Source of the DNA: an uncultured virus (IMG/VR IMGVR_UViG_3300048587_001148)
Lineage: Duplodnaviria; Heunggongvirae; Uroviricota; Caudoviricetes
Reading direction: 5' to 3' (one strand)
Length of the DNA: 64,000 nucleotides
IMG/VR virus record: IMGVR_UViG_3300048587_001148
Position 1 is the stretch's first letter. Every line of letters starts with the position of its first letter. Positions 1-16,604 of this stretch are shown here, in pieces. Under the pieces are notes generated by a model. The model saw only the letters and a list, made by a program, of their open reading frames with translations, ran no database searches and was not told the origin of the DNA. The position numbers and the translations under genes are program-made.

Positions 1-813
1 TCACGCATGTCGTGCCCCCGCGCTGGCTTGCCCCAGGGACTGCAGCTGCGTGACAGTGGCCAGGCCTGCGGCTGCCAGGACGGGATGGGGGTGCCCGAGC
101 CAGAACTGGGAGATGCGCGCGCGGTCGTCCGCGGAGGTGAGTCTGTGCCATCGATCGACAAGCCGCTGTGCGTGCATGGGATTCTTGACTGTGGTGTCTG
201 TTGTGAACGGGGTCTCTTGCTCGGGTGTAACGTGATGGTCGGCGAGGCGCAGGTCGTTGTCTGTCCCGTCACCAAAAACGCATTCATCGCCAAGGAAGAA
301 CGAGGCGTCCTGGACACGGTCGCGCAGCACCCCTGAGATGTCGGTGGTCTTCCGGGTGAGGTACCATTTGAGGTCACCAGCCGGATGGCGCTGAAGTGCC
401 AGTTGTCCATGTGGTGTGTGTACCGAGACGTAATCAACGTGTCGTCCATGGCGCGAGGTCTTGACGTTGTACGAGAGGAGCCCCCCCGCAGCCGCAGGGT
501 GCATCACGTTCTCTTGCTGGTCAGGTTTTGTGGGGCCGACCCAGGCAAATTCCTCGTCCGCGGGGCCGCTCCGCTTGATGATCCAGGGTGCGATGGGGTG
601 GGTGGCATTGACGGTGTCGCGCGTTTGCTGCAGCGCTTCCTTGGCAGCGGCTTCCCCCCATGCCGGGTGATTGACTGCTGGTGGGAGTGGCAGCGGGCGA
701 CCCGGGGTCGCGATTGCCCAGCGCTGCGCCCATTCCGGCAATTCCGGGTAGAGGCGGCGTAGACTGCGGCGCAGCACGGGATCTGCTACGAGCGTGACAG
801 AGATTGCCGACAT
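1..813 (-). CDS. Array paralog 1 (class A1), unknown family, 270 aa
   Basis: LVADPVLRRSLRRLYPELPEWAQRW ... FGDGT ... RWHRL..DDRARISQFWLGHPHPVLAAAGL. Confidence 0.9.
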   Translation of the reverse strand: MSAISVTLVADPVLRRSLRRLYPELPEWAQRWAIATPGRPLPLPPAVNHPAWGEAAAKEALQQTRDTVNATHPIAPWIIKRSGPADEEFAWVGPTKPDQQENVMHPAAAGGLLSYNVKTSRHGRHVDYVSVHTPHGQLALQRHPAGDLKWYLTRKTTDISGVLRDRVQDASFFLGDECVFGDGTDNDLRLADHHVTPEQETPFTTDTTVKNPMHAQRLVDRWHRLTSADDRARISQFWLGHPHPVLAAAGLATVTQLQSLGQASAGARHA

Positions 814-818
814 GTGGC

Positions 819-824
819 ACCATA
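819..824 (-). promoter_or_regulatory. Putative -10 box TATGGT, 5 nt before ATG of paralog 1 (leaderless-type)
   Basis: Minus strand CGAGTATGGTgccacATG; same arrangement recurs at paralogs 6, 8, 9 and 12. Confidence 0.55.
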
Positions 825-910
825 CTCGATAGGACGGGCGTGGCCCCTTACGACGGGCATGGATTGCCCGGCTACCGCGGTGTGTCGGTGCCTGTGATTA
901 GCGTTTGTGG

Positions 911-1756
911 TTACAGCCTGGGCTGCGGGGCGGCCGGCAGGGTCGCGAGGCCCGCCGCCGCGAGCACGGGATGCGGATGTCCGAGCCAGAACTGTGTCAC
1001 GCGTGCCTGATCTGCGGGGGTGGGAAGCCGGTGCCAGCGCCTGAGGAGGATGTCGACGTCCTCATCGCTGGGGACGTCCTCGTCGTGCCGTGTCACCTGC
1101 GTGGAAGATGGGACGAGGATGGGTGGTGGCTCCGCGCTATCGTACGACTGCACACTGAGCGCGTCTGGGCTGCCATCGGCCAGGATTTCCTCGAGCTCCT
1201 CGCGACCAACAAACGCTACTCTGCCCGGTCGTGAGGCGCCCTGCGCGACACGGGAGCCGACATGGAGGTACAACCCCTCGTCGGTGTCCAGGCCCACCGT
1301 ACGCTGCTGCCCGAGGTCGACGCGCAGGAGGCCACCGTACCCGACGACGAAGAGGAGGTCTTCATTGAGGGCACCCCCGCTGTCCGGCGTGAAGCGGTGT
1401 TCGATCACAGAACCGTCCGGGAGGGCCTGGCCCAGTTGGGCGCGATAGCTGCCCGTCCCGTTGGGATCGGGGCGGGTAAGCCCCCGCGCTTCACCGCGAA
1501 GGACCCGAAAGGGTTCCACGGTCCACCCGGACTCCGGGTATTGGCGCTGGAGGATCTCCAGACTCTGCACGAGTGAGGCGTCGCGGGCTTCAACGCTGGT
1601 GAAGATGGGAAGGCTGTAGTCCACCAGCGCCGGCAGGGGCGCCCCGGGCTCAGCGATGAGGTACGCCTGGACGGTGGGGTGATATTCCGGGTAAAGCAGG
1701 CGCAGGCTCGCACGGAGCTCGGGATCCTCCACGAGGGCAATCGCGGTCTCAGACAT
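911..1756 (-). CDS. Array paralog 2 (class B1), 281 aa
   Basis: LVEDPELRASLRLLYPEYHPTVQAYLIAEPGAPLP ... LADGS ... FWLGHPHPVLAAAGL; ATG overlaps stop of paralog 3 by 8 nt. Confidence 0.9.
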   Translation of the reverse strand: MSETAIALVEDPELRASLRLLYPEYHPTVQAYLIAEPGAPLPALVDYSLPIFTSVEARDASLVQSLEILQRQYPESGWTVEPFRVLRGEARGLTRPDPNGTGSYRAQLGQALPDGSVIEHRFTPDSGGALNEDLLFVVGYGGLLRVDLGQQRTVGLDTDEGLYLHVGSRVAQGASRPGRVAFVGREELEEILADGSPDALSVQSYDSAEPPPILVPSSTQVTRHDEDVPSDEDVDILLRRWHRLPTPADQARVTQFWLGHPHPVLAAAGLATLPAAPQPRL

Positions 1757-2351
1757 GCCGGTGTTGCCTCCCGGCGGAGGGTGGGACGCTGGTGTGTGTT
1801 GTGTTCGTGGGCGTGTCCTGGGGCATGACCGCCAGGCCAGCGGCCGCGAGGATGGGGTGCCGGTGTCCCATCCAGAAGGCGGCGATCCGTGCGCGATCCT
1901 CCCCGGAGGTGAGCATCTGGAAACGACGAAGCAGCGCGTAGATGCTCATCCGATGTTTGGCGTCTTCCCGGGTCCCACTTTCGGGCTTGATGGGTTGCTT
2001 GTGGTCGACAGCGCCGCGGGTGAGCAAGAGATAGGCACCGGTGCCGTCCGCGAAGGTGACCTGGAATGGGCCCTTGTCGGAGCTGTTGCCATGGCGAATA
2101 TCGCGGAGATAGCGGAAGGCCAATCGTTCACCCCGCAGGGCATCCCCACCAACCAGCGTGGTGCCGCGGCTGATTTGCCAGGCGATGCTGTCGTCCTCAC
2201 CCCCGAGGTGCCCCGGGGGCTGCGCCAGGGGCGCCCCGGGGGCAGGGGTGATCCAGACACGGGCCCATGGGGGGAGCTCGGGATAGAGGTGCCGCAGACT
2301 TTCCCGGAGCGCCGGGTCGTCGGTGAGGGTGATGGTTTGGGTCTCAGGCAT
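1749..2351 (-). CDS. Array paralog 3 (class A, internally shortened), 200 aa
   Basis: Start reassigned to ATG 2351 (MPETQTITLTDDPALRESLRHLYP); FADGT; FWMGHRHPILAAAGL; 8-nt overlap with paralog 4. Confidence 0.85.
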   Translation of the reverse strand: MPETQTITLTDDPALRESLRHLYPELPPWARVWITPAPGAPLAQPPGHLGGEDDSIAWQISRGTTLVGGDALRGERLAFRYLRDIRHGNSSDKGPFQVTFADGTGAYLLLTRGAVDHKQPIKPESGTREDAKHRMSIYALLRRFQMLTSGEDRARIAAFWMGHRHPILAAAGLAVMPQDTPTNTTHTSVPPSAGRQHRHV

Positions 2352-3306
2352 GCCCGCGTCTCCCGCTGGGGATCGGGACGACGGGGGGCCAAATGGTGGG
2401 GAGTGGAGTGGTGGGGAGTTGGATGGCGCTGAACACCCGCATCCCGAGCTCCGCCAGTATGGGATGTGGGTGGCCGAGCCAATAAGTGGCGACGCGCGCG
2501 CGGTCGACATCGGAGGGCAAGTTGCGCCAGCGGCGGAGGAGCTCCAGCCGACTAATCTCGAGGGTGAGGGCGTCGACATTCTCGTCCGGATCGACAACCT
2601 GCCAGGGGGTGACGCGGCCGCGGGTCAGCGTGAGCTCGTAGGTACCGTCGGCAAGGAGGATCACCGCGTTCTCCCCGGGCTTGTACGCCGGGGCTGGATC
2701 GCGCGAGGGGGGTGCGGCCTGCGCCGCCTCGGCGAACACCGGGGTGGCCTCTCCGTTGTGTCGGAGATAGACCTGTCGGAAGGCAATATGCTCTCTCGCT
2801 CGAACGACTCCTGCGCACCGCATGTCGCCGCGTTCGAAACTCCAGCCTTGCACGCCCGGCTCGAGGCTCAGGAAGAGATGCCCACCATGTTCTTGGATGG
2901 TCAACCGGGTGGCCTGTGGGTTGAGCGCCCTGTCGCTGGGTCGTCGGGCCCTCGTACTCGGTGGGGCAGCGAGTGACACCACGCGCCCCTCCGCCTGTGG
3001 ATGGGTCACACGATCTTTCCTTGTGCATCCGGCAGGCCCAATCCACGCGAAGGCCCCTTCACGTTGCACGACCCATGGCCGCGATGGATGGGTCGCGTTG
3101 ACGGCCGCACACGTCGCCTGGAGCTCTGTCAGGAGGACATCGGTCCGTGTCCGATCCCCCTGGGGTCTCAGGGGAGGCGGTGCCAGGGGCGCCCCGGGGG
3201 TGGGGATCAGCCACTCGCGCGCCCACATGGGGACATCGGGATAGAGGTTCCGCAGGCTCTCGCGCAGCTCGGGGTCGGTGACGAGTGGGATGGTGAGGTT
3301 AGGCAT
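2344..3306 (-). CDS. Array paralog 4 (class A2), 320 aa
   Basis: MPNLTIPLVTDPELRESLRNLYPDVPMWAREW; LADGT; YWLGHPHPILAELGM; 8-nt overlap with paralog 5. Confidence 0.9.
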   Translation of the reverse strand: MPNLTIPLVTDPELRESLRNLYPDVPMWAREWLIPTPGAPLAPPPLRPQGDRTRTDVLLTELQATCAAVNATHPSRPWVVQREGAFAWIGPAGCTRKDRVTHPQAEGRVVSLAAPPSTRARRPSDRALNPQATRLTIQEHGGHLFLSLEPGVQGWSFERGDMRCAGVVRAREHIAFRQVYLRHNGEATPVFAEAAQAAPPSRDPAPAYKPGENAVILLADGTYELTLTRGRVTPWQVVDPDENVDALTLEISRLELLRRWRNLPSDVDRARVATYWLGHPHPILAELGMRVFSAIQLPTTPLPTIWPPVVPIPSGRRGHA

Positions 3307-4183
3307 GCACACGCCTCACTCCAGCGACAGCTGGGGTCGTGAGGAGGGCATTGGCCTCCACGGCGATCGCTAGGCCGGCTGTCGCCAGAACCGGGTGGGG
3401 ATGCCCAAGCCAGAATGCAGCAATCCGTGCCTGATCTTCCGGAGACGCGAGGGCACGCCAGCGTGCGAGCAACGGCTCTGCACGTCGCGTCCGTTCCGTG
3501 TGGCCGCCGTCCCCGTACCCGAACCGCTGGAGGGCCTCCGGCACCATGGTGTCGCTGGGTCGACCGTCGAGGACCGCAGAGGGGGGAGATGTGACGCCGC
3601 GCTCGACACGGAGCTCGTTGGGGCTCCCGTCAGCGAGGTCCTCTTCAAGATCATCCCGACCCACGACGATTATTGTTTGGTTGTCGTACACGCGGAGACG
3701 AAGGCCGGGGCGGGTTTCGAGTACCACGTGTGTTGAGTCTTCCCAGAGTTCGACGTCAAGCAGGCCCTCATGGGCTACGACGGTCGTGAGGTTGCCGAGA
3801 ACCTTTACTGAGCCGTTGTGTCGGTACTCGACGACGGCGCCATCCGGAAGGTTGTACATGGTGTTGAAGTGTGTCTCTGACGGCGTCCCACTCTTGAGTG
3901 TTCGGTTGTAGATCCCCTTGTCGAGGCTTCCGAGCGGCGGCTTCGCTTCCCATGCCATGGTGGGATGGCGGGACTGTAATGTCTCCAGGCTGTGGGTGAA
4001 TGCCGCCTCTTGAGCCGCAGCGTCATTGAAGATCGGCAGGGTTCGATCGTAGAGAGGTGGCAGGGATACATCGGGCTCTGCGATGAGCCACGCCTGTACG
4101 ATGGGCGCGTATTCCGGATAGAGCCTCCGGAGGCTTGCGCGCAGTTTGGGCTCGGCAACGAGGGGGATCGTAAGCTCAGACAC
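3299..4183 (-). CDS. Array paralog 5 (class B1), 294 aa
   Basis: GTG start at 4183 (VSELTIPLVAEPKLRASLRRLYPEY); LADGS; FWLGHPHPVLATAGL; 8-nt overlap with paralog 6. Confidence 0.88.
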   Translation of the reverse strand: MSELTIPLVAEPKLRASLRRLYPEYAPIVQAWLIAEPDVSLPPLYDRTLPIFNDAAAQEAAFTHSLETLQSRHPTMAWEAKPPLGSLDKGIYNRTLKSGTPSETHFNTMYNLPDGAVVEYRHNGSVKVLGNLTTVVAHEGLLDVELWEDSTHVVLETRPGLRLRVYDNQTIIVVGRDDLEEDLADGSPNELRVERGVTSPPSAVLDGRPSDTMVPEALQRFGYGDGGHTERTRRAEPLLARWRALASPEDQARIAAFWLGHPHPVLATAGLAIAVEANALLTTPAVAGVRRVHA

Positions 4184-5036
4184 GCGAGCGCCCCCCGCGT
4201 GCAGGTGGAGCGATGCCCGGGCAGGTAGCCACCTCCCCTGTGGCAAGCGCGGCGAGTGTAATCAGGCCGGCGGCGGCGAGCACGGGATGTCGATGTCCCA
4301 TCCAGAAAGCCGCAATGCGTGCTTGATCCTCGCGAGACGTCAGTGCGCGCCAGCGTGTGAGGAGCGTCTCGCAATCCAGCGCGATAAGATCTTTTGACCA
4401 ATCGCTAATGTCGACCGACTGGACCGCCACGGGCACGATGCTGGTTGACGTCCGAGTGGCGACAAGGCCCGTATCGCTCCCATCAGCGAGTAGTCCGTCT
4501 ACCACTGACCGGTGCGCGATGGTCGCCCCTCCGTCTTTTTTGACCACGATCTCGAGTCCGTCATGGGTTGTGAGCGCCATGTCCACGCCATCGCGGGTCG
4601 CTGTTGCCCGAAACTGCCCATGATGAAAAACAACCCCGACAAGGGTGTCGCGTTGCCTAGTGGGATTAGGGCGATACTCTATCACGGAATACGCTGGGAG
4701 AGCCTGTAGGCCTTCGTCGTGTGCGCTCCGCTTCCGCGATCGACACTCGATTTCCCGGAGAGTGGATCCATAACACGCGATCCCCAGCCGCGGGTTTGCG
4801 ACCCATTGCATGTCCGGGTAGTTGCGCTGGAGAAAATCCAGGCTGTGGTCGAACGACGATTCTTGCGCCGCGACATCGGTAAATATCGGGAGCGTGAAAT
4901 CCACGAGGTCCGGCAGGGGCGCGCCAGGCTCTGCAATGAGCCACGCTTGAATCGTGGGCTCGTACTCCGGGTAGAGCCGTCGAAGGCTTTCGCGCAGGGC
5001 AGGATCTTGGACCAGGGAGATTTCGATGGTCGACAT
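4176..5036 (-). CDS. Array paralog 6 (class B1), 286 aa
   Basis: LVQDPALRESLRRLYPEYEPTIQAWLIAEPGAPLP; LADGS; FWMGHRHPVLAAAGL. Confidence 0.9.
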   Translation of the reverse strand: MSTIEISLVQDPALRESLRRLYPEYEPTIQAWLIAEPGAPLPDLVDFTLPIFTDVAAQESSFDHSLDFLQRNYPDMQWVANPRLGIACYGSTLREIECRSRKRSAHDEGLQALPAYSVIEYRPNPTRQRDTLVGVVFHHGQFRATATRDGVDMALTTHDGLEIVVKKDGGATIAHRSVVDGLLADGSDTGLVATRTSTSIVPVAVQSVDISDWSKDLIALDCETLLTRWRALTSREDQARIAAFWMGHRHPVLAAAGLITLAALATGEVATCPGIAPPARGGRSRV

Positions 5037-5041
5037 ATACC

Positions 5042-5047
5042 ACCATA
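5042..5047 (-). promoter_or_regulatory. Putative -10 box TATGGT, 5 nt before ATG of paralog 6
   Basis: Minus strand TGTATGGTggtatATG. Confidence 0.55.
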
Positions 5048-5094
5048 CAGGCCTGTGGTGTGATGGCCCGCCGTCAGCTGATGCTGGGCGGGTG

Positions 5095-6099
5095 TTAGGT
5101 GGTAGGAGCCCGGCGCTTTGTCATGGCAGGACTAGCCGTGATTTCGCCCGTTGTGATCTCGCCCGCATTGATCGCGGCAAACGTGGCCAGGCCGGCGGCG
5201 GCGAGGATGGGATGGGGATGGCCGAACCAGAACCCCGCGATACGCTCGCGATCCTCGGGGGCCGGCAGCTTTCGCCACCGCTCGAGCAGTCGATCGCGTT
5301 GGTGCATCTGGATAACCGGGGTGGAGCTGATATCCCCTTTTTGTAATGCATCCGGGATGATGCTAGACGTTGTATGTGTGAACGTGAGACAGCGTCCAAC
5401 GCCATCGCCGAGGATTTCGGTGAAGTCGGTTTCAACGAGATCCTTGTCGTGTGCGGGACGCTCTTCGTCTGCCGGGACCCAACGCGGATGCTGCTCGTCG
5501 TAGATGACGCCATCGACAATGGACGGGAAGGTGTCCAGGCCGAAATCCCGCTCTGCGGCCTCAGACTGGCCAACGATGACTGGTGCAGCAGCAAGGGTGA
5601 GTTGAAGGTCACCGTATTCTACGATGGCCTCGTGTGCATCGCCTGGGTAGAGCTCGATGACTGCCCCGTGGCAGGCTCGCTCGGCGACTGGCAAGAACAC
5701 CGGTTTTGCATCCCAGGCGTCGGTGTGATCCATCTCTCTGTACCCTACGAGAGCGCCGTGGGGGAGTGCGGAGGCCACGAGGTCACAGTCAAGATGGGGG
5801 CCGTCCCCGGCGACTGTAAGGTAGCGCTGCTGCCCGCCTCCGTACCTCGCGGGGCTTTCGATGCACCACTGGATGTCGGGCCGGTGGGCCTGTAGATATC
5901 GAAGGCTTTTGCGGAGTTCCTTTCTGAGGTCCTCCGCGACACCAACTGAAGTGGGGATTCCTTCGAGGAGGTCCGGCAGGGGCGCCCCAGGCTCGGCGAT
6001 GAGCCACGCTTGAAGAATGGCCGGGTAGCCCGGGTACAGCCTGCGCAGGCTCGCGCGGAGCTCGGGATCAGCCACGAGGGGAACATTGGCCGCTGTCAT
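5095..6099 (-). CDS. Array paralog 7 (class B, divergent), 334 aa
   Basis: Start ATG 6099 (MTAANVPLVADPELRASLRRLYPGY) in ATGA overlap with paralog 8; LGDGV; FWFGHPHPILAAAGL. Confidence 0.88.
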   Translation of the reverse strand: MTAANVPLVADPELRASLRRLYPGYPAILQAWLIAEPGAPLPDLLEGIPTSVGVAEDLRKELRKSLRYLQAHRPDIQWCIESPARYGGGQQRYLTVAGDGPHLDCDLVASALPHGALVGYREMDHTDAWDAKPVFLPVAERACHGAVIELYPGDAHEAIVEYGDLQLTLAAAPVIVGQSEAAERDFGLDTFPSIVDGVIYDEQHPRWVPADEERPAHDKDLVETDFTEILGDGVGRCLTFTHTTSSIIPDALQKGDISSTPVIQMHQRDRLLERWRKLPAPEDRERIAGFWFGHPHPILAAAGLATFAAINAGEITTGEITASPAMTKRRAPTT

Positions 6100-6947
6100 G
6101 ATGGGACCATACGCGGTGCATGGATCGCCCGGTGACCCGTCGCGCTCGCCAGTCCCGCGGCCGCCAGCACGGGATGCCGGTGTCCCAGCCAGAAAGCGGT
6201 GATCCGTGCACGATCCTCCTCGGAGGTGAGCGCCTCCCACCGGCGGAGGAGGTTGAGCAGGCTGGCCTCCTGATGAGCCCGGTCACGGTCCAGTGTTCCA
6301 ATGCGGACGGTCTGCTGCTCGTGGACGAGTCCCGCGTGCAAACTCAGGTAGCTGTCTGTGCCGTCGGCCATGATGTTGGGCGGCGGTGGCGTGCCGTCGG
6401 CCCCCTTCTCGTGCTCGGTGTATTTGAGGTAGCGGAACGTCGTCTTCCCGCCCTCAAGCATAATGCCGTCCATCCACAGCCCCTTGCGGCGGATGTGCCA
6501 AGTCTTTCCGTGCGGGCCGAGAGCGATGGAGAGGCGCCCCCGTTGGTATTGGAGGGTTACCTCCCCGGCGCGCTTCCCGAGCTTGCCCTTGGGGGCCCAG
6601 TTTCGCGTTTCCAGGGAGACGATACACCCCTCGGCCGCCTGGTGGGAAAGACGATGGCTCGGTTTACTGCCGGGGCGACCGATCCATGCGTGGCCGTCGT
6701 CGCACTGTACCACCCAGGGCGTGATGGGGTTGGTTGCATTGATGGCCGCACGGGTCGCCTCGAGCTCCTCCAGTAGGACGGCGGTCCGCACGCGATCACC
6801 CTTCGGCGTTTCGGGAGGGGCGGCCAGGGGCGCCCCGGGGGTGGGAATGAGCCACTTGCGCGCCCACTCGGGGGCGTCGGGATAGAGGTTGCGGAGGCTC
6901 GTGCGAAGCTCGGGGTCTTCGATCAGCCGGACGGAGATCTGGTGCAT
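6096..6947 (-). CDS. Array paralog 8 (class A2), 283 aa
   Basis: Start ATG 6947 (MHQISVRLIEDPELRTSLRNLYPDAPEWARKW); MADGT; FWLGHRHPVLAAAGL. Confidence 0.9.
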   Translation of the reverse strand: MHQISVRLIEDPELRTSLRNLYPDAPEWARKWLIPTPGAPLAAPPETPKGDRVRTAVLLEELEATRAAINATNPITPWVVQCDDGHAWIGRPGSKPSHRLSHQAAEGCIVSLETRNWAPKGKLGKRAGEVTLQYQRGRLSIALGPHGKTWHIRRKGLWMDGIMLEGGKTTFRYLKYTEHEKGADGTPPPPNIMADGTDSYLSLHAGLVHEQQTVRIGTLDRDRAHQEASLLNLLRRWEALTSEEDRARITAFWLGHRHPVLAAAGLASATGHRAIHAPRMVPS

Positions 6948-6953
6948 GGGGCA

Positions 6954-6959
6954 ACCATA
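6954..6959 (-). promoter_or_regulatory. Putative -10 box TATGGT, 6 nt before ATG of paralog 8
   Basis: Minus strand GGTATGGTtgccccATG. Confidence 0.55.
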
Positions 6960-6978
6960 CCCGGCGGGATGGAGCGCC

Positions 6979-7012
6979 ACATGGTCCGCTGCGCAACATG
7001 GTCCGCTGTGCA
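6979..7012. repeat. Tandem 17-mer x2 (ACATGGTCCGCTGYGCA), between paralogs 8 and 9
   Basis: Read directly from sequence. Confidence 0.85.
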
Positions 7013-7022
7013 ATGCGGCTTG

Positions 7023-7817
7023 CTAGCGTATCGGCCGATGAGGCTGTGGTGTCGTCGCGATCTGGAGGCCGGCGGCGGCGAGTACGGGATGACGATGCCC
7101 GAGCCAGAACGCCGCGATGCGTGCGCGATCCGAGGCGGAGCGCAGGGCGCGCCAGCGCGCCAGAAGGCTGCTGGGATCGCCTGATGTATCCACGTGGGGG
7201 ACCTTCGCGTTTTGCGCGTGCACTGGAACCAAGTTGTCGAGGAGGAGATCTCTCGTCGTCCCGTCGGCAAACACCTCCGCGGCGTACCGCCCCACGAGAT
7301 TGCTGGAAAAGGTGATGCCCCTCCCCTGCATGGTCGATACACCAAGCGTGTTGTCGACGTATGTCCAGTCGATGAGGGGCTTACGGGGGAACTCAAGGGT
7401 GAGGAATCTCGCGCCCTGGCCATGTTGCAGGCTGAGCCGGAGCGGTGAAGTGCCTGCAAGGTCGGTTCGGTACGCCGTAGTGTGGCCGGCGGCGGCGGGG
7501 TGAGTCGCCGGCTCCTTGCGGGTGCTGTTCGGTGGGCCAGCCCAGTAGAACTTGCTACCGAGGCCGGATTCTTCGAGGACCATCCAGGGCTTGGGAGGGT
7601 CGTGCGCGTTCACGGCTGCACATGTGGCCTCGAGGGCCTCGAGGGCGGCGGCGGCACTGTCCCATGCTGTGGCGGCATGCGCGGGTGGCAGGGGGAGTGG
7701 TCGATTGGGGGTGGCAATGAACCAGCCGCGTGCCCACGCCGGCAGCTCCGGGTAGAGCCGGCGCAGGCTCGCGCGCAGCACGGGGTCCCTGACGAGGGGG
7801 ATCTCGATGGTGTCCAT
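7023..7817 (-). CDS. Array paralog 9 (class A1), 264 aa
   Basis: Start ATG 7817 (MDTIEIPLVRDPVLRASLRRLYPELPAWARGW); FADGT; FWLGHRHPVLAAAGL. Confidence 0.9.
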   Translation of the reverse strand: MDTIEIPLVRDPVLRASLRRLYPELPAWARGWFIATPNRPLPLPPAHAATAWDSAAAALEALEATCAAVNAHDPPKPWMVLEESGLGSKFYWAGPPNSTRKEPATHPAAAGHTTAYRTDLAGTSPLRLSLQHGQGARFLTLEFPRKPLIDWTYVDNTLGVSTMQGRGITFSSNLVGRYAAEVFADGTTRDLLLDNLVPVHAQNAKVPHVDTSGDPSSLLARWRALRSASDRARIAAFWLGHRHPVLAAAGLQIATTPQPHRPIR

Positions 7818-7825
7818 GTACTGCG

Positions 7826-7831
7826 ACCATA
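7826..7831 (-). promoter_or_regulatory. Putative -10 box TATGGT, 8 nt before ATG of paralog 9
   Basis: Minus strand CGAGTATGGTcgcagtacATG. Confidence 0.5.
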
Positions 7832-8687: not shown

Positions 8688-9588
8688 GTGGACGTCCGGG
8701 ATCCGCACCTCCCAGGCGACTGGTGAGGATCGCGAGGCCGGCGGCGGCCAGGACCGGATGCGGGTGGCCCAGCCAGAAGTTCGCGATACGCGCCCGATCG
8801 TCACAGGAGTCCAGTTGGTGCCATCGCCACAGCAGTCGATCCCGCTGGTATGCGATCTCTTGCCGCCGATGGAGGCCTTCCTGGTCGAAGGGTTGGAGGG
8901 TGTGGGGGATGATGCCCTCATTGGTTTTGTTGACTAAGAGATACGGTTGACTCCCATCAGCAAGTACCTCTGTCGTACTGTCGGCCAAGGCCGCATCACT
9001 GCGCGGATCGCTCTCCGCTGCGCACTCACCAACGTCGTCCGCGGATGTGGGGTCGATTATGCGCGACACGATATCCTCGCCGATCGTATAGCCGTCATCA
9101 ATCGTGAGGGGTGGCATGCTGGTGAAAAAGCAGTGTGTTGGGCTGTCGGTGGTGGTGGAGCACTGCAGGATGCCGTCGTGGGCGACAACGGTGACGGTGT
9201 ACTGATCCCGCTCGGTCCCCTTGATGTAGTGATATTCCAGGACGGCACCCGCCGGTAGCATGTCAGGCTCCCAGATATTCGACGAGCCTATGGCGCCCGT
9301 CGTCAGGCGTCGCTGCTCCCCACCGTTGCGGGCGCGCACTGCGCCGGTGGCAGACCACTGCATCTCGGGATAGCGAGCCTGCAGGAGCACCAGGGTGCGA
9401 TCAAGCGCCTCCACCTGCGCGGCGAGATCGGTCCAGAGGCTGGCGTTCTGGTCGACGAGTGGTGGAAGGGGCACCCCGGGCTCCGCGATGAGCCAGGCCC
9501 TGATAGTGGACGCATACTCTGGATAGAGCAGCCGAAGGCTGTTTCGGAGCACAGGGTCCGTGACCAGGGGGATTTCGACGGTCGACAT
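8680..9588 (-). CDS. Array paralog 11 (class B1), about 302 aa
   Basis: MSTVEIPLVTDPVLRNSLRLLYPEY (alternative ATG at 9600); LADGS; FWLGHPHPVLAAAGL. Confidence 0.88.
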   Translation of the reverse strand: MSTVEIPLVTDPVLRNSLRLLYPEYASTIRAWLIAEPGVPLPPLVDQNASLWTDLAAQVEALDRTLVLLQARYPEMQWSATGAVRARNGGEQRRLTTGAIGSSNIWEPDMLPAGAVLEYHYIKGTERDQYTVTVVAHDGILQCSTTTDSPTHCFFTSMPPLTIDDGYTIGEDIVSRIIDPTSADDVGECAAESDPRSDAALADSTTEVLADGSQPYLLVNKTNEGIIPHTLQPFDQEGLHRRQEIAYQRDRLLWRWHQLDSCDDRARIANFWLGHPHPVLAAAGLAILTSRLGGADPGRPHG

Positions 9589-9639: not shown

Positions 9640-10443
9640 CTAGTAGCGTCCCTGGCCTCCCTGGCGTGTGGCACCCTGGGTGGTGACCGTTAGACCGGCC
9701 GCAGCGAGGGCGGGGTGTTCATGTCCGAGCCAGAACGCGGCGATGCGTGCGCGGTCCGCATGGGATCGCAGGCCGTGCCAGCGCGTGATGAGGTCTGCTT
9801 CGAGCATGGTGCTGGAATCGGCGTATATCCAGCCCACCTGAGTGCGGGTGGGTGTAAAGGCGTCGAGGATGAGTTGCGAACTGGTACCATCCGCGAATCC
9901 GTTCCCGCCTGTGGTGTGGAGTCGCCCGGCACTGCTGTCGGATCCCACGGAGACGGAGGTATGTGCTAACTCCTGATCTCCTTGGACGAGGTCCCAGTCG
10001 ATGGTCGGGCTATCGCGGTAGCTGTAGTGGATCCACGTCTCGCCCGTCCCTCCCTGGAAGATGAGGAGTTCGGGTCTACCATGATTGTCGATCGTCAGGC
10101 CTTGCAGGTGACCGTCGGCCGCCGGATGGGACCGTGGAGCTCCCCACTCGCTGCGGGGTGGTCCAGCCCAGTAGAATCGAGGGTTCCTGTTGCGGCGTGG
10201 GAACACGGACCATGCCTGGGGCGGATTGCTGGCGTTGACCACTGCACAAGTAGTCTCGAGGGCTTTCAGCGCGGCGTCCTCACTGTCCCACGCGGGGTGG
10301 TGGTACGCCGGTGGGAGCGGGAAGGGTCGGCCTGGGGTCGTGATGAGCCAGCGTCGTGCCCATGCGGGGAGCTCGGGGTAGAGCCGACGCAAGCTGGCGC
10401 GCAGGAGCGGGTCTTCGACGAGGGCTACCCTGATTTCGTACAT
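9640..10443 (-). CDS. Array paralog 12 (class A1), 267 aa
   Basis: LVEDPLLRASLRRLYPELPAWARRW; FADGT; FWLGHEHPALAAAGL. Confidence 0.9.
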   Translation of the reverse strand: MYEIRVALVEDPLLRASLRRLYPELPAWARRWLITTPGRPFPLPPAYHHPAWDSEDAALKALETTCAVVNASNPPQAWSVFPRRNRNPRFYWAGPPRSEWGAPRSHPAADGHLQGLTIDNHGRPELLIFQGGTGETWIHYSYRDSPTIDWDLVQGDQELAHTSVSVGSDSSAGRLHTTGGNGFADGTSSQLILDAFTPTRTQVGWIYADSSTMLEADLITRWHGLRSHADRARIAAFWLGHEHPALAAAGLTVTTQGATRQGGQGRY

Positions 10444-10448
10444 GTCCC

Positions 10449-10454
10449 ATCATA
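10449..10454 (-). promoter_or_regulatory. Putative -10 box TATGAT, 5 nt before ATG of paralog 12
   Basis: Minus strand CGAGTATGATgggacATG. Confidence 0.55.
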
Positions 10455-10526: not shown

Positions 10527-10574
10527 GTGCGTTGGTGCGTTGGTGCGTTGGTGCGTTGGTGCGTTAGTGCGTTG
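10527..10574. repeat. Tandem 8-mer GTGCGTTG x6 (fifth unit GTGCGTTA)
   Basis: Read directly; the variant unit supplies the TAA stop of paralog 13. Confidence 0.95.
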
Positions 10575-11418
10575 GTGTGGGGTGCGCGCTTTCGCGAAGC
10601 AGCGCGTTGTCGGTGGCAATCGCAAGGCCGGCGAGTGCGAGGGCGGGATGGGGGTGGCCGAGCCAGAACTGCGCAATGCGCTGCCGCGCGTCATTGGAGG
10701 AGAGCGCGTGCCAGCGTTGGAGGAGTGCGCGGGCGCCGGCCTGATAGTCGGTGGAGGTGATGCTCGCGCGCATCTGCTGTTCGGCCAGCGGGCATCCGTT
10801 GGTGAGCGCGAGGACCCCTGGGCTGCCGTCGGCGAATGGCACCCCCAAGATGCCGTGTTCCGCGAGGCCTTCCTTCGATTGGATAACCAGGCGGCGCTCC
10901 GCGATGCGGCCATCGAGCCCGATGTGTCCATGGAGTGTTATGGGTCCGCGGTAGTGCGCCCAACGCAGTGGGGCGTGTGCGGCGATGGTCGCGAGCGTGC
11001 TGCCGCGGGCTTCGCGCCAGGTGGCCTCGAAGACGTGGGGTCCGAGGCCTGAGCCCCTGGGGCCATCGGGGTCGAATGTGCGGATGGTGATGATGCGTCC
11101 GACGGCCTTGGGATGCCTGGTGCGGTGTTTGAACGCGCTCCCGTCCGGTCCAATCCAGGTGATGTGTCCGTTCTGGTGGAGCTGCCACGGTTGTCGCGGT
11201 GCAGTGGCGTTGATGGCCTCGCAGGTCTCGCGCATTTCGGCCAGGAGATTGGCGGTGATGGTGCGCTCGCCTTCCGGCGTGTCGTCAGGGGGGAGGAGCG
11301 CCTGCTCGGGTGGGGCGATAAGCCAGGCGCGAGCCCATGGGGGGCACTCGGGATACAGCTGCCGCAGAGCCGCTCGCAGGTCCGGATCGGTCACGAGGGG
11401 GACGGTGGTGATCGCCAC
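10564..11418 (-). CDS. Array paralog 13 (class A2), 284 aa
   Basis: GTG start at 11418 with GGAG upstream (VAITTVPLVTDPDLRAALRQLYPECPPWARAW); FADGS; FWLGHPHPALALAGL. Confidence 0.88.
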   Translation of the reverse strand: MAITTVPLVTDPDLRAALRQLYPECPPWARAWLIAPPEQALLPPDDTPEGERTITANLLAEMRETCEAINATAPRQPWQLHQNGHITWIGPDGSAFKHRTRHPKAVGRIITIRTFDPDGPRGSGLGPHVFEATWREARGSTLATIAAHAPLRWAHYRGPITLHGHIGLDGRIAERRLVIQSKEGLAEHGILGVPFADGSPGVLALTNGCPLAEQQMRASITSTDYQAGARALLQRWHALSSNDARQRIAQFWLGHPHPALALAGLAIATDNALLRESAHPTPTH

Positions 11419-11565
11419 GTTAGCGGGCTCCGGGTGTGTGGATCGCCGCGGTGTCCCGTGTGAAGTGCAAATCACACGTACAGTACATGTCCCACCTGGG
11501 GGTACACGCTGGTACTGTCCCTCATGCTGCAGCCTCCCTCATGCTGTAGTCGCACGTGGTCGGAT

Positions 11566-12537
11566 TTATCCGCCACGGACTTGCTCGGTGAAGAGGGCCA
11601 GACCCGCGGTTGCAAGCGTGGGGTGGGGATGGCCGAGCCAGAAGTCGGCGATGCGTCGACGATCACCGTCATCCTGCAGCGCGCGCCAGCGTGTCAGCAG
11701 GCGTTGGACATGGATGGGGTTCCCCTGCGGGTGGCTGAGGGGTTGGAAGTACGGCTGGATGCCCTGCGGCACGGTGCGGGTCTGGGGGTCGGTCTGTGGG
11801 TTTGTCTGAGGTGCGGTATGTGCGGCCGGCGCGTGGGGTGTTTGGTGGCTGGTGATCTGGTGGCTGGTGATCGCTTCAATCGGCGAATGGTCAGCCGGGA
11901 TGCGATCGCCGAGGAGAAAGGTGGGGCTGCCGTCGGCTAGGACTTCCGGGAGCTCCATGCGTCCGATGTGGACGCTGCTGGTGTCGTCGTCGTCGTAGTT
12001 GACATCCAGGAAGAGGCCTGTCCGGTCTTCGAAGCGGATGTTGATGGCGCCATCCTTGTGCTCGACCTCGAGGAGTCCTCCGTGGCGGACAACAGTGGCG
12101 CGGACGGCGCCGAGCTCATCGGGATCGTAGTGGTCGATGGGGCGATCGTAGAGGTACGAGGTGACGGCGTCCGCGGGGAGCTCTTGGAGGATTTCGGCGC
12201 GGTCCGTGTCGTCGAAGTATCTGGTGTCGCACACAAGGGTCCGTTCGACGCTGGTGCGGCGGGTGGTCCGGAAGGGGGGTGAGGCTTTCCACTGCATCTC
12301 GGGGTAGGCCTCGCGCAGGTCTTTCAGTTGGGCCTTGAAGGAGGCTTCTTGGGCGGCGGTGTCGGTGAAGATGGGCAGGGTGTAGTCGGCCAGCTCCGGC
12401 AGGGGCGCCCCAGGCTCGGCGATGAGCCAGGCTTGGATGATGGCGGGGTACTCCGGATAGAGTCGGCGCAGGGCGGCACGCAGTTCGGGGTGGCGGACCA
12501 GGGGGATGATGGGTTCGCCATCGGGACGGGGGTTCAT
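11566..12537 (-). CDS. Array paralog 14 (class B1), 323 aa
   Basis: ATG 12537 in ATGA overlap with paralog 15; LVRHPELRAALRRLYPEYPAIIQAW; LADGS; FWLGHPHPTLATAGL. Confidence 0.88.
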   Translation of the reverse strand: MNPRPDGEPIIPLVRHPELRAALRRLYPEYPAIIQAWLIAEPGAPLPELADYTLPIFTDTAAQEASFKAQLKDLREAYPEMQWKASPPFRTTRRTSVERTLVCDTRYFDDTDRAEILQELPADAVTSYLYDRPIDHYDPDELGAVRATVVRHGGLLEVEHKDGAINIRFEDRTGLFLDVNYDDDDTSSVHIGRMELPEVLADGSPTFLLGDRIPADHSPIEAITSHQITSHQTPHAPAAHTAPQTNPQTDPQTRTVPQGIQPYFQPLSHPQGNPIHVQRLLTRWRALQDDGDRRRIADFWLGHPHPTLATAGLALFTEQVRGG

Positions 12538-13541
12538 GCCTGGGTCTCTCCTGTCGGGTCTGGGGCTGCCTGAAGCCCGAGGAGTGCCAGGCCGGCCGCG
12601 GCGAGTACGGGATGTGGGTGGCCGAGCCAGAAGGCGGCGATACGCTCGCGGTCGGCGGGATCGGTGAGGGCCTGCCAGCGTCGGACGAGGGCCTGACACT
12701 GGGCATTCCGGATGTTGGTTGCGGGCTCGTCCTGGGTATCGCGCTGGTGCAGCGAGGGGACGGAGCCTTTGCGCGTGGGAGTGCAGGTGAGTTCGGCGGG
12801 GCTGCCGTCGGCCAGGATTTCCCCGTGGTCAATCCCTTGGCGGTCGACCAGTGCTTGGAGGGCGCCGGGTCGTGTCGCGAGTTCGTCCATCTCATCGGGG
12901 GGGGTGGCGCTGACGAGGATGCGCGCCGCATGGAGTTTTCGGTTGAGGTTGTGGCCGAGGTAGTTGCTGAAGGGCATGCCGAAGGGGATATCGAGGCTGA
13001 GGCCCCGGCCGAAGTAGCGCATCCCATGGGCGCCCCGTCCCCCGGTGATGACCTGTCCCCCCTGGGCGATGCGGGTCATCATTAGGGGGGTGTCACCGGA
13101 GTGGTTGACCATGTAACCAATGAGGGCGCCCTCTTCGAGGGTCTCGCGCGCGAGTTCTTGGGCGCGGGTGTACGGCCGGGGATTGTTCTCACCGTAGTTG
13201 GTGTCCGTGTATTGGGCGGCGGCTTCTTGCTCGGTCCCGTGGCAGATCAGCTCGCGCGACACGCGGCTCTTGGTGGCGTGGGGGATGGTGAGGTCATTGC
13301 TGATGGCCCATTGGAGCCAGGGGCACTCTTCCCGCATGCGCTGCAGGCTGCGCTGCAGCTGGGCCTCGACCTCTGGGGCCTTGCCTTTCTTCATGAGGCT
13401 GCGATCGACGAGTTTGGGCAGCGGGACGTCAGGCTCAACGATGAGGTGTGCCTGGAGGATCGGCGGGTACTCGGGGTAGAGCCGACGCAGGCGCGCGCGC
13501 AGCTCGGCGTCCGCCACGAGTGGGATCTGCCGATTAGCCAT
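12534..13541 (-). CDS. Array paralog 15 (class B2), 335 aa
   Basis: ATG 13541 (MANRQIPLVADAELRARLRRLYPEY...DRSLMKKG), 8-nt overlap with paralog 16; LADGS; FWLGHPHPVLAAAGL. Confidence 0.9.
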   Translation of the reverse strand: MANRQIPLVADAELRARLRRLYPEYPPILQAHLIVEPDVPLPKLVDRSLMKKGKAPEVEAQLQRSLQRMREECPWLQWAISNDLTIPHATKSRVSRELICHGTEQEAAAQYTDTNYGENNPRPYTRAQELARETLEEGALIGYMVNHSGDTPLMMTRIAQGGQVITGGRGAHGMRYFGRGLSLDIPFGMPFSNYLGHNLNRKLHAARILVSATPPDEMDELATRPGALQALVDRQGIDHGEILADGSPAELTCTPTRKGSVPSLHQRDTQDEPATNIRNAQCQALVRRWQALTDPADRERIAAFWLGHPHPVLAAAGLALLGLQAAPDPTGETQA

Positions 13542-14391
13542 GGGGCTGCTCGATGGCTGTCGAGAGGAGCATGGGCGACATGGTGGTGATGGCCAGGCCG
13601 GCTGCCGCCAGGGCGGGATGTGGGTGCCCCAACCAGAATTCGGTGACGATCGCCTTGTCGTTGCGGGAGGGGAGTGCATGCCAGCGTCGGAGGAGTTCAC
13701 GCGCGGTGTCGTTGTGGACCTCTGGTCCGCCCCCTGCCCAGACGCGTTGTTCGGGGGTGGGCTTGCCCTTGCTGAGCGTCAGTGTGCTCGCGGTACCATC
13801 GGCTCGCGCGGCCCCGCTGGGGTGATCGAGAATATCATCGGCTTCTGCGTCGGGATGGAGGATGCGTTCGGCCTCCAGGCCGTTGCGGTCCACATGGCCG
13901 TTCATGATGAGCTTGCCGTAGTGAATGCGCCAATGCAGCGCTTCCGTGGCCGGCGGTCGGGTGACGAGACGTCCATGTTTATCGCACAGGGTGACCTCGA
14001 AGGTGTCGCTACCGAGGCCATCGACCGGTTTCGGGCCGTCGTGGTGGAAGGTTTTGATGTTGATGATGCGGCCGACCGCCTTGGCATGTCGTGCGCGGTG
14101 TGTCGGCTGACTGTTCGCGGGTCCAATCCATGCGACATGGTGGAGTTGTTGGAGGGACCACGGCTTCGTGGGGTTGGTCGCGTTGATCGCCGCACAGGTG
14201 TCCTCGAGCTCCGCCAGGAGGGTGGCGGTCTTGGTGCGGGCGCCTTCTGGTGTGCCTGGGGGTGTCGGGAGTGTCTTGTTGGGGGCAACAATGAGCCATT
14301 CGCGGGCCCACGCCGGGACTTCAGGGTACAGGAGTCGCAGGGCAGTGCGGATCTGGCGATTGGTCACGAGGGGGACGTGGACGTAGGACAT
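13534..14391 (-). CDS. Array paralog 16 (class A2), 285 aa
   Basis: LVTNRQIRTALRLLYPEVPAWAREW; RADGT; FWLGHPHPALAAAGL. Confidence 0.9.
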   Translation of the reverse strand: MSYVHVPLVTNRQIRTALRLLYPEVPAWAREWLIVAPNKTLPTPPGTPEGARTKTATLLAELEDTCAAINATNPTKPWSLQQLHHVAWIGPANSQPTHRARHAKAVGRIINIKTFHHDGPKPVDGLGSDTFEVTLCDKHGRLVTRPPATEALHWRIHYGKLIMNGHVDRNGLEAERILHPDAEADDILDHPSGAARADGTASTLTLSKGKPTPEQRVWAGGGPEVHNDTARELLRRWHALPSRNDKAIVTEFWLGHPHPALAAAGLAITTMSPMLLSTAIEQPHG

Positions 14392-14418
14392 ATGCGGGTT
14401 TCCGGGTTGATGTAAGTC

Positions 14419-14477
14419 GCTGTGATCTGCACTGCTGTGATCTGCACTGCTGTGATCTGCACTGCTGTGATCTGCAC
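14419..14477. repeat. Tandem 15-mer GCTGTGATCTGCACT x4, intergenic
   Basis: Read directly, between paralogs 16 and 17. Confidence 0.95.
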
Positions 14478-14501
14478 CGCAGGGATCGCGGCGTCGTGGT
14501 G

Positions 14502-15500
14502 TTACGGCGGTGACGTGCCCTGGCCCAGGAGTTCCATCCCGACGGCGGCCAGAAGCGGATGGTGGTGTCCGAGCCAGAAGCCACGGATCCGTTCGCGGTC
14601 GACGGGATCGGAGAGGGCCTTCCAGCGCCGGATCAGAGCATCGCGCTGCGCGGCTTGGATATTTCGCGGTGGCTCCCAGTCGCCGTGGTGCTGGTTCGGT
14701 GACGGGACGACGCCGGCGCGGGTGGGCGTACCGTCCAGCTCTTCGGGGGTGCCGTCCGCGAGGGTTTCGCCGTAGCTCACGGGGCGGTCGTTTCCGTAGG
14801 GATCGGTGGTGAGGTGTCGTTCAGGGACTTCGTACTCACCGGGGCTGAGGGTGCTGGCTGCCTCGATGTCGACGTGATTGAGGCTGCGTCGTGGGAGGTT
14901 GTCGGGGGCTGTTTCGAACGGTTGGCCTTGGGGGGTATAGAGCTCGAGCCCGGGGGCGTAGAAGTTCATTCCGAGTGCGTTGCGTCCTGCCGTGACGACC
15001 TGGCCACCGAAGCCGATGCGACTGATGCTCATGGGGGTGTTGCCCTTGGCGGCGCGCATCGAGCCGATGACGGCGCCTTCCGGGAGTGTTTGCAGTGCCG
15101 CCGCCTGCTTGGGGGTATAGGGGGTCTCGCTGTCGCCCCCGAGGACGGAGTGTTCCCAGGGCTCATTGCTCCAGCGGAGGCCGGCTCCGGTGGTGTGGCG
15201 TCCCGTCGGGTCGCAGGTTAGGTATCGGAGGACCCGGTCGTGGTAGCCGCGACCGGAGGCGGCCACCCAGTGCATGTCGGGATACTTCGCCTGGAGGTAC
15301 TGCAGGCTCTGTTGGAGGGCCGCTTCCACCTGTGGGGTCATGCCCTTTTTCATGAGGCTGCGATCGCCGAGTCTGGGCAGGGGCGCCCCAGGCTCGGCAA
15401 TGAGCCAGGCTTGGACAGCGGGCTGGTACTCCGGGTAGAGCCGGCGGAGGCTGTTACGCAGATCGGCGTCCTCAACGAGGGGGATCTGCAGATTAGCCAT
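14502..15500 (-). CDS. Array paralog 17 (class B2), 332 aa
   Basis: LVEDADLRNSLRRLYPEY...DRSLMKKG; LADGT; FWLGHHHPLLAAVGM. Confidence 0.9.
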   Translation of the reverse strand: MANLQIPLVEDADLRNSLRRLYPEYQPAVQAWLIAEPGAPLPRLGDRSLMKKGMTPQVEAALQQSLQYLQAKYPDMHWVAASGRGYHDRVLRYLTCDPTGRHTTGAGLRWSNEPWEHSVLGGDSETPYTPKQAAALQTLPEGAVIGSMRAAKGNTPMSISRIGFGGQVVTAGRNALGMNFYAPGLELYTPQGQPFETAPDNLPRRSLNHVDIEAASTLSPGEYEVPERHLTTDPYGNDRPVSYGETLADGTPEELDGTPTRAGVVPSPNQHHGDWEPPRNIQAAQRDALIRRWKALSDPVDRERIRGFWLGHHHPLLAAVGMELLGQGTSPP

Positions 15501-15502
15501 GT

Positions 15503-15538
15503 TGCTGCTCGGTGTTGCCGTGCTGCTCGGTGTTGCCG
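15503..15538. repeat. Tandem 18-mer TGCTGCTCGGTGTTGCCG x2
   Basis: Read directly, immediately upstream of the paralog 17 start. Confidence 0.9.
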
Positions 15539-15572
15539 TGGTGGTCGGTGGGGCATATGGCGTGGTGATGTG

Positions 15573-16604
15573 TCATGCCGGGTGTACTCCAGTTTGGTGC
15601 TCCTCGAGGTGATGTCCGAGCAGTGCCATGCCGGCCGCGGCGAGGACCGGATGGGGGTGTCCGAGCCAGAACGCGGCGATGTGGCGACGATCCTCCGGGG
15701 ATGTGAGGGTGCTCCAGCGTCGGAGCAGGGCATCACGCTGTGCGGCGTGGATCTTTCGTGAGGGTGTGTTGCTGTAGTCGATGTGCTGGAGCGCCGGTAC
15801 CGACCACGCGCCGGCGCCGGTGCGGACGGTTTCACAGTCGAGCTCGCGCGGGGTGCCATCCGCCAGCACTTCGCCGTACGTGTAGTCCATCGACGGCCCG
15901 GGATACATGGTGTCTGCCTGCTCTGGGCGCGGTGGCTCGACGATGTGGTGGTGGGTCGCGGCGGCTCGCTGGATGGCGGCGACATTGAGGGTGCGGGTCG
16001 TGCTGGTGCCGGTCATCTCTTCGAGGGGCGGCCCTTCGGGCGCGGAGAGTTCCAGGCCGTAGGCGGCGTAGCGCATGCCGACGGGGCTACGTCCGGCGGC
16101 CTGGACGATGCCCCCGTGGCCGATCCGCGAGATGATGATCGGCGTCTGGCCGCTCGCGGAGGCCGTGTAGCCGATGATCGCCCCTTCGGGCAGGGTGTGG
16201 AGCGCCTCAGCCTGGGTGATGGTGTAGTCGTCGCTGTAGGCGTCGGAGCGTTCACTGATCGGGGTATAGCTCGGCTCGGTGGTGGGATCACTGGCCGGGT
16301 CGCTGGGGATATCGCAGGCCAGGTCGCGAAACAGGCGCTCGTTGTAGCCCCGACGCTCGTGCACGGTCCAGTGCATGTCGGGGTGCTGAGCCTGCATGCG
16401 CTGCAGGCTCTCCTGGAGACCGGCCTCGATTTCGGGGACTTTGCCCTTTTTCATGAGACGGCGGTCGGCCAGTGATGGCAGGGGCGCCCAGGGCTCAGCG
16501 ATCAGCCAGGCCTGGATGATGGGCTGATACTCGGGGTACAGCCGGCGCAGGCTCTCCCGGAGGATGGGATCCTCCACGAGGGGGTAGGAGGGATACTGTC
16601 TCAC
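15573..16604 (-). CDS. Array paralog 18 (class B2), about 343 aa
   Basis: Probable GTG start at 16604 (VRQYPSYPLVEDPILRESLRRLYPEY...DRRLMKKG), start uncertain; LADGT; FWLGHPHPVLAAAGM. Confidence 0.85.
   Translation of the reverse strand: MRQYPSYPLVEDPILRESLRRLYPEYQPIIQAWLIAEPWAPLPSLADRRLMKKGKVPEIEAGLQESLQRMQAQHPDMHWTVHERRGYNERLFRDLACDIPSDPASDPTTEPSYTPISERSDAYSDDYTITQAEALHTLPEGAIIGYTASASGQTPIIISRIGHGGIVQAAGRSPVGMRYAAYGLELSAPEGPPLEEMTGTSTTRTLNVAAIQRAAATHHHIVEPPRPEQADTMYPGPSMDYTYGEVLADGTPRELDCETVRTGAGAWSVPALQHIDYSNTPSRKIHAAQRDALLRRWSTLTSPEDRRHIAAFWLGHPHPVLAAAGMALLGHHLEEHQTGVHPA

Follow-up and report, generated by a model that had tools for sequence, protein, structure and literature searches.

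A tandem array of 18 paralogs with conserved ends and diverged cores beside a type IV secretion system: a probable old expansion under purifying selection

Positions 1-16604 of a 64,000-nucleotide stretch from an uncultured virus record (IMG/VR IMGVR_UViG_3300048587_001148; Caudoviricetes), referred to here as the window, carry on the minus strand an array of exactly 18 complete paralogous open reading frames (ORFs) of 200-343 amino acids. The array follows a type IV secretion cluster that lies mostly on the same strand, starting about 100 nt downstream of the final gene there. Our analysis indicates that it is probably an old tandem expansion of one lineage-specific family, in which the ends are held by purifying selection and were not made alike by the swapping of parts, and in which the two classes of protein, A and B, appear from sequence and predicted structure to be diverged versions of a single core. 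The wider explanation, in which this old and selected expansion also supplies cargo for secretion, is the one we favor on balance. A preliminary description of the same DNA had recognized the two interleaved classes, and had taken their common ends as handles for recombination and their mixture as a possible sign of A/B hetero-pairs. The classes were borne out by the present analysis, while neither recombination nor pairing found support. A family hidden Markov model (HMM) searched against all six-frame ORFs of the window recovered the same 18 copies and no others, and every copy has a start codon 7-12 codons ahead of the motif LVxDPxLRxSLRxLYP.

The division into two classes is clear from the alignment. 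Class A comprises eight copies (1, 3, 4, 8, 9, 12, 13 and 16) and reads LYP[ED]xPxWAxxW, followed by T..[VI]NA..P...W...WxGP...H..AxG. Class B comprises ten (2, 5, 6, 7, 10, 11, 14, 15, 17 and 18) and reads LY[PR][EG]Yxxxx[QR]A[WYH]LIxEP..LP.L, followed by SL..LQ..YP.M.W. Departures from these motifs, both reproduced as first described, are small: copy 8 has WIGRP, and the M of YP.M.W is missing from copy 2. The membership lists, the order BBABBAABBAABBBAABA in the direction of transcription, the shortening of copy 3 by loss of the first half of its core, and the C-terminal variants that cross the classes (FWMGHRHP in copies 3 and 6, GHEHP in copies 10 and 12) likewise agree with that description. 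The core tree separates A from B at 100/100. Core identity is 16-44% within a class and 10-20% between classes, and at alignment columns 28-50 the corresponding values are 52-86% and 30-56%. Among the sub-clades proposed earlier, B2 (15, 17 and 18) is well supported in the core (98/98), while A1, A2 and B1 are weakly supported but compatible with the data. A1 (1, 9 and 12) reaches 85/89 in the N-terminal block (N-block) and is not rejected by the core (p = 0.33), A2 (4, 8, 13 and 16) is not rejected either (p = 0.215), and B1 is recovered at just 71/57. The core tree also contains the pairs 9 + 12 (89/78) and 13 + 16 (91/87).

Columns 1-27 and the C-terminal block (C-block; columns 361-407) show no class structure, identity between classes being equal to that within them, at about 40-76%. 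Amino-acid identity in the end blocks is 38-76% and synonymous sites are nearly random; the shared-end pattern is real conservation at the protein level. We therefore read the ends as alike across the classes because purifying selection keeps their amino acids, not because their DNA is homogenized. Where aligned amino acids are identical, the codon is also identical in a fraction of 0.446-0.514 of cases in the N-block, 0.466-0.481 in the C-block and 0.408-0.437 in the core, against 0.41-0.42 expected from the codon usage of the family; recent homogenization would drive this fraction toward 1. No exact nucleotide match among the copies is longer than 35 nt, a length reached between the class-B copies 7 and 14; the next longest are 24 and 23 nt. 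A GENECONV-like test on runs of identical codons at silent columns gave p < 0.05 in 6 of 153 pairs, where 7.65 were expected, and p < 0.01 in none. Even the C-terminal variants that cross the classes are coded differently: the Arg of GHRHP is CGG, CGA, CGG and CGT in copies 3, 6, 8 and 9, and for the Glu of GHEHP copy 10 uses GAG and copy 12 uses GAA. These variants are parallel single-base changes at one variable site.

What the recombination idea brings to mind is the antigenic-variation cassette, a system in which silent copies with conserved flanks are recombined into an expression site. The array resembles such cassettes in its tandem copies, conserved flanks and variable cores. Unlike them, all 18 copies are intact with their own start codon, six carry their own TATGRT box (described below), and the flanks share at most 35 identical nucleotides, with saturated silent sites and no conversion tracts.

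Phylogenetic comparison of the segments led in the same direction. Separate trees of the N-block, core and C-block, in which incongruence had been sought as a mark of exchange, showed no conflict between supported clades within the resolution of the trees. By the approximately unbiased (AU) test, class-A monophyly was rejected neither by C-block DNA (p-AU 0.248) nor by the first 27 codons (p-AU 0.141), the core topology was not rejected by the C-block (p-AU 0.207), and neither the N-block nor the core rejected the supported clades of the other. In a tree built from the C-block alone for 58 family members, a short third class, recognized by a motif at the N terminus, forms a monophyletic group (14/14; SH-like approximate likelihood ratio test [SH-aLRT] 90), and the class labels require 9 changes against 22.2 when shuffled. 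The C-block thus tracks the classes, which argues that ends and cores were inherited together. Similarity shows a weak, nonsignificant relation to rank distance within the array (r -0.24; p = 0.13 for A and 0.07 for B), and a pattern of three-gene block duplication was dropped because the classes fail to correspond across blocks.

Several observations weigh against this picture and in favor of shuffling through the ends. The end blocks are common to both classes without class structure, as are the end variants. The N-block (129 nt) rejects the fully resolved DNA topology of the core (p-AU 0.00024), identical codons are slightly in excess in the ends (0.45-0.51 against 0.41-0.42), and the first 60 nt group copy 9 (class A) with copies 6 and 11 (class B) at 90/79. 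As no supported clade is in conflict, we attribute the N-block rejection to those parts of the saturated tree that are unresolved; an old exchange close to the 5' ends, at which the rejection hints, is conceivable, though nothing shows one. Against near-random silent sites, a longest exact match of 35 nt, a null tract test, class monophyly that neither end rejects and shared variants that are coded differently, we consider it improbable that the ends act as recombination handles that shuffle the cores while A and B proteins work as hetero-pairs. The pairing part of that model fares no better by its own evidence. The A/B order has 10 runs against 9.9 expected at random, and the translationally coupled sets (16A-15B-14B, 11B-10B, 8A-7B and 6B-5B-4A-3A-2B) follow no constant A/B pattern. 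Outside the window, 53 family sequences comprise 14 with an A core, 2 with a B core and 37 with neither. Random order and the occurrence of A-type cores largely without B elsewhere speak against obligate A/B pairs.

The preliminary description had also treated A and B as different cores, whereas profile comparison and models suggest one diverged fold. Alignment of the A-core and B-core profiles with hhalign gave a probability of 71.8% (E = 3.5e-5) over 88 columns that span the long helix, the P...W motif and the first strands, and both classes have an invariant ADG, L and Q toward the end of the core. The AlphaFold models of copy 9 (class A; predicted local distance difference test [pLDDT] 90.6) and copy 6 (class B; pLDDT 90.8), each with a predicted template modeling score of 0.86, are built up in the same sequence, with a short strand and two helices leading to a long helix, then an antiparallel sheet of 8-10 strands and, at the end, three helices. 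With the models mapped onto each other through the sequence alignment, the DSSP state is equal at 44 of 44 positions in the N-block, 104 of 152 in the core and 39 of 47 in the C-block, a likeness that is not independent, as both models were built from one mixed-class alignment, and that in this respect counts for less in favor of a single fold. The sheet has the same weak structural neighbors in both models, namely OspA variants, the CPAP G-box and phage spike proteins. Congruent trees together with a single core fold had been named at the outset as pointing to plain duplication and drift, and this combination was largely what emerged, within the resolution of the trees.

The predicted architecture consists of a conserved frame around a diverged center. 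The frame would comprise an N-terminal strand with two helices (about 45 amino acids) and three C-terminal helices (about 50 amino acids, RW...DRARIxxFWLGHPHPxLAAAGL); between them the models place the long helix and the antiparallel beta-meander sheet of 8-10 strands, and after them a short, probably disordered tail that is usually Arg-rich. For the class-B model, two compact designed helical bundles align over residues 7-273 and 13-268, which suggests that the N- and C-terminal helices pack together. Flagellins offer an analogy, having conserved N and C termini and a hypervariable middle. Both termini of the array proteins are likewise conserved and helical around a diverged, beta-rich middle, but this is an analogy only: their terminal helices are much shorter, and the matches to flagellin in the PDB are not significant (E = 0.25-0.26). 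An array of VirB2-type pilins, which have about 100 amino acids, a signal peptide and two membrane helices, was rejected, the array proteins having 200-343 amino acids and models of soluble helix-plus-sheet proteins without long hydrophobic helices.

The family is an uncharacterized and unusually expanded orphan, with a confident predicted fold that matches no solved structure. Searches of the 18 proteins against Pfam, NCBIfam, PADLOC and PHROGs returned chance-level matches only, and a PDB sequence profile search gave a best E of 0.25 (flagellin). Foldseek found nothing at E <= 0.001 in the PDB with either model or in BFVD with the A model. A wide fold search with VIA stayed at background level (best Z 5.1 for A and 4.4 for B), and the best score in the ESM Atlas, 0.80, is noise. 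An exhaustive HMMER search of 1.84 billion representative sequences yielded 66 matches at E <= 0.001; none exceeds 360 amino acids, so there are no fused forms among the 66. All 30 of the non-window members that were looked up are recorded on a contig of 609,694 bp, either themselves or by way of a cluster mate at 90%; we assume this to be a single contig because the same length is recorded in every case. Across these sequences, at least four types of core are built onto one common frame, including the short class of 175-240 amino acids with LFPE[FL]PxW at the N terminus and FWLGHxxPxLAxLG at the C terminus. No relative was found in the plasmid collection, by DNA or by protein, in species-representative genomes, in metagenome contigs or in the whole record of Gemmatirosa plasmid 2; among viral contigs, a single 22-residue match within an RNA-virus polyprotein was discarded as chance.

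The copies, numbered from the left edge of the window and all on the minus strand, are closely packed. Copy 1 (1-813; class A, 270 amino acids) has a TATGGT box 7 nt before its ATG. Copy 2 (911-1756; class B, 281 amino acids) begins within the last 8 nt of copy 3 (1749-2351; class A, 200 amino acids), the copy with the internal deletion, which matches the family HMM in two stretches, 1-47 and 136-268. Copy 4 (2344-3306; class A, 320 amino acids) overlaps copy 5 (3299-4183; class B, 294 amino acids, GTG start at 4183) by 8 nt, and copy 5 in turn overlaps copy 6 (4176-5036; class B, 286 amino acids, TATGGT box) by 8 nt. Copy 7 (5095-6099; a divergent class B protein of 334 amino acids, TATGGT box) has a 4-nt overlap with copy 8 (6096-6947; class A, 283 amino acids, TATGGT box), and copy 9 (7023-7817; class A, 264 amino acids, TATGGT box) comes next. 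Copies 10 (7875-8687; class B, 270 amino acids) and 11 (8680-9588; class B, 302 amino acids) overlap by 8 nt. They are followed by copy 12 (9640-10443; class A, 267 amino acids), which has a TATGAT box, and copy 13 (10564-11418; class A, 284 amino acids), which has a GTG start. Copy 14 (11566-12537; class B, 323 amino acids) overlaps copy 15 (12534-13541; sub-clade B2, 335 amino acids) by 4 nt, and copy 15 overlaps copy 16 (13534-14391; class A, 285 amino acids) by 8 nt. Copies 17 (14502-15500; 332 amino acids) and 18 (15573-16604; 343 amino acids, GTG start), both B2, complete the set of 18. Two copies contain an in-frame 15-nt tandem repeat: copy 7 in its tail (5138-5173; GEITTGEIT) and copy 14 within a long Pro/Thr/Gln-rich insert (11843-11872; ITSHQITSHQ).

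Expression appears to proceed from several promoters of leaderless type combined with translational coupling. At eight junctions in the array, a gene overlaps its upstream neighbor by 4 or 8 nt. The 8-nt junctions have a common layout, (C)RTGNNTRA, which gives H/R-V/A-stop in the upstream frame and M-S/P-E/N in the downstream frame, whatever the class. The stop codon of copy 1 is overlapped by an ATG at 8..6, and the same layout is present at window positions 1-8, so the array probably continues past the left edge with a nineteenth gene. The sequence TATGRT stands 5-8 nt ahead of an ATG eight times in the window, against 0.56 expected, and six of the eight cases are at array gene starts, on the minus strand: 811-824, 5034-5047, 6097-6111, 6945-6959, 7815-7831 and 10441-10454, for copies 1, 6, 7, 8, 9 and 12. 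The other two lie outside the array at 52787-52800 and 57328-57343. To judge by their sequence and position, the boxes look like -10 boxes of leaderless transcripts, in which case transcription of the array would start at six or more separate sites. Tandem repeats also occur in the non-coding DNA just upstream of five copies: perfect 15-nt repeats ahead of copy 18 (4.3 units, 16635-16699) and copy 16 (3.9 units, 14419-14477), an 18-nt repeat directly ahead of copy 17 (2.7 units, 15503-15550), and perfect or near-perfect repeats ahead of copy 12 (8 nt, 6.4 units, 10527-10577) and copy 8 (17 nt, 2.4 units, 6974-7013). These could be regulator sites or length-variable promoter spacers.

The neighborhood of the array offers the leading guess as to function. 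Upstream, the window encodes a weak VirD4/TraG-like coupling-protein homolog (21131-24031, minus strand; TraG-D_C 1.4e-07), a VirD4/TraG-type coupling protein (24153-26858, plus strand; T4SS-DNA_transf 2.9e-36), a TrbI/VirB10-like protein (30594-31955, minus strand; TrbI 2.8e-12) and a VirB4/TraC-type ATPase (40558-43365, minus strand; P-loop_TraG 2.1e-23, TraC-F-type 1.6e-57). After the final conserved helix comes a short tail, modeled with low confidence, in which Arg, Pro and Thr are abundant (Q 6.1%, R 11.6%, P 13.1%, T 10.6%). Its net charge is positive in 56 of 66 non-redundant family members, though in just 12 of the window's 18 copies. When the final 15 residues are considered, 62 of 71 family sequences have a net positive charge, compared with 13 of 30 other window ORFs (Fisher p = 1e-5); these counts are not independent, as family members share ancestry. 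The frame may be a common docking or recognition module and the diverged sheet the seat of a copy-specific activity. In a more definite form of the mechanism, the C-terminal helical block and the positive tail would make up a two-part recognition signal for a VirD4-type coupling protein, and the sheet would act on or bind different targets. The positive tails, the adjacency and the parallels with known substrates set out below make secretion cargo our leading functional guess; by analogy, the proteins may be substrates of the adjacent type IV secretion system, a tentative reading that we put clearly below an even chance.

The closest parallel is with the BID-domain substrates of VirB/VirD4 systems, such as the Bartonella Beps, whose paralogous genes lie beside the secretion locus. 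In these substrates a folded helical C-terminal domain and a short positive tail form a bipartite signal, and the remainder of the protein diversifies (PMC6509941). The array similarly adjoins VirD4/VirB4 genes, with two VirD4-like genes, TrbI/VirB10 and VirB4/TraC within 27 kb upstream, mostly on the same strand, and its proteins have a conserved three-helix C-block and mostly positive tails. It differs in that the N terminus is conserved too, the copy number is far higher, and the host is an uncultured high-GC bacterium and not an alphaproteobacterial pathogen; the cargo role, moreover, is here a prediction. A BID domain, a C-terminal helical bundle of about 100 amino acids, was matched neither in Pfam or NCBIfam at E <= 1 beyond chance nor among the Foldseek and VIA matches listed, an absence that does not amount to exclusion. 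A second parallel is provided by the X-Tfe effectors of the type IV secretion systems with which Xanthomonadales kill other bacteria. In these, a conserved C-terminal domain of about 120 residues (XVIPCD) is bound by the all-alpha domain of VirD4 and attached to variable parts (PMC8740702). The array proteins also join a conserved C-terminal part to a variable one. Unlike the XVIPCD tail, which is glutamine-rich, theirs is rich in Arg, Pro and Thr; and whereas X-Tfes have toxin domains and paired immunity genes, none is recognizable in the 18 proteins and no gene from outside the family is interleaved among them.

A cargo role also has evidence to contend with. Copies 13-18, which lie closest to the secretion genes, carry tails that are neutral or negative, while those of copies 1-12 are all positive. 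At least 30 other members lie elsewhere on the 609,694-bp contig, so adjacency to secretion genes may be incidental. No search matched BID or XVIPCD, and library scans of the window proteins recognized no relaxase, known effector or toxin domain. Some of these points would fit an intracellular, diversified binding or immunity-like family, whose frame would be a scaffold or partner dock, whose sheet would recognize many ligands, for example invading proteins, and whose array would adjoin the secretion genes by chance. Neither a signal peptide nor a membrane segment is apparent on reading the alignment; the family has many members, dispersed along the contig, and places at least four core types on one frame, and six of the 18 window copies lack the positive tail. 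This alternative, which leaves the positive tail of 56 of 66 members unexplained and has neither a matching PADLOC defense model nor a partner gene interleaved in the array, strikes us as rather unlikely, if well worth keeping in mind. Another possibility is that these are establishment or anti-defense genes of a conjugative element, switched on soon after entry into a new host by strong promoters of their own, each paralog being directed against a different host factor. Linkage to conjugation-type genes (VirD4, VirB4/TraC, TrbI, a RecD2-type helicase, a topoisomerase and UvrD) and the many separate promoter-like boxes would suit it. The proteins resemble no known anti-restriction or anti-defense family in Pfam, NCBIfam or PHROGs, neither a relaxase nor an origin of transfer was identified by which a leading region could be placed, and 18-paralog arrays of a single family are not known from leading or establishment regions. 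We consider establishment or anti-defense genes as improbable as the shuffling model.

Some further features of the region deserve mention. The two VirD4/TraG-like genes, one strong-scoring and one weak-scoring, lie back to back on opposite strands, and an ORF at 20413-21753 shares about 620 nt with the weak one, so that one member of this overlapping pair has been called too long. An ORF of 808 amino acids (16705-19131, minus strand), located between the secretion cluster and the array, has many short peptide repeats and no family match; by reading, its hydrophobic N terminus and its strand-rich C terminus ending in W give it an outer-membrane-barrel-like appearance. The region from 19.5 to 64 kb also encodes an OmpA-domain protein, an M23 peptidase, the RecD2-type helicase, a type IA topoisomerase and UvrD. 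Within the secretion cluster, an AIM24-family protein (1e-36; 45894-46652, minus strand) directly upstream of the M23 peptidase (45241-45897, minus strand) is an unusual companion. The topoisomerase is 46.5% identical to a protein of Gemmatirosa kalamazoonensis plasmid 2, whereas VirB4 is just 23% identical to genes of Thermus plasmids. Only the topoisomerase is common to the window and the 37 kb examined of the Gemmatirosa plasmid, and a literature search on Gemmatimonadota plasmids with type IV secretion gave no paper that was relevant by title or abstract. Placement of the host depends on the topoisomerase, and the source is best described as a probable uncultured high-GC bacterium.

A tandem array whose members combine conserved ends with divergent cores is not necessarily a product of shuffling. 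A test at silent sites can distinguish selection on the protein from homogenization of the DNA, and for this array it indicates selection. The family is absent from every curated library searched, and its confidently predicted fold is unmatched. It is nearly confined to one large contig, of whose genes it makes up an unusually large share, and it stands beside a divergent type IV secretion system. A bolder proposal, which we regard as speculative and on present evidence unlikely, is that the proteins form a new class of type IV substrates whose recognition module is split over both ends of the chain and closes round an exchangeable beta-sheet "warhead," and that this class has grown to some 50-65 paralogs on a single replicon, about 610 kb long, of an uncultured diderm bacterium with high GC. 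If true, this would be a single-family effector library of a size so far known only from multi-family repertoires. Should the array proteins be secretion substrates, their conserved frame would constitute a new recognition signal, and the array would offer naturally occurring variants with which to study how a single secretion system deals with many cargoes.

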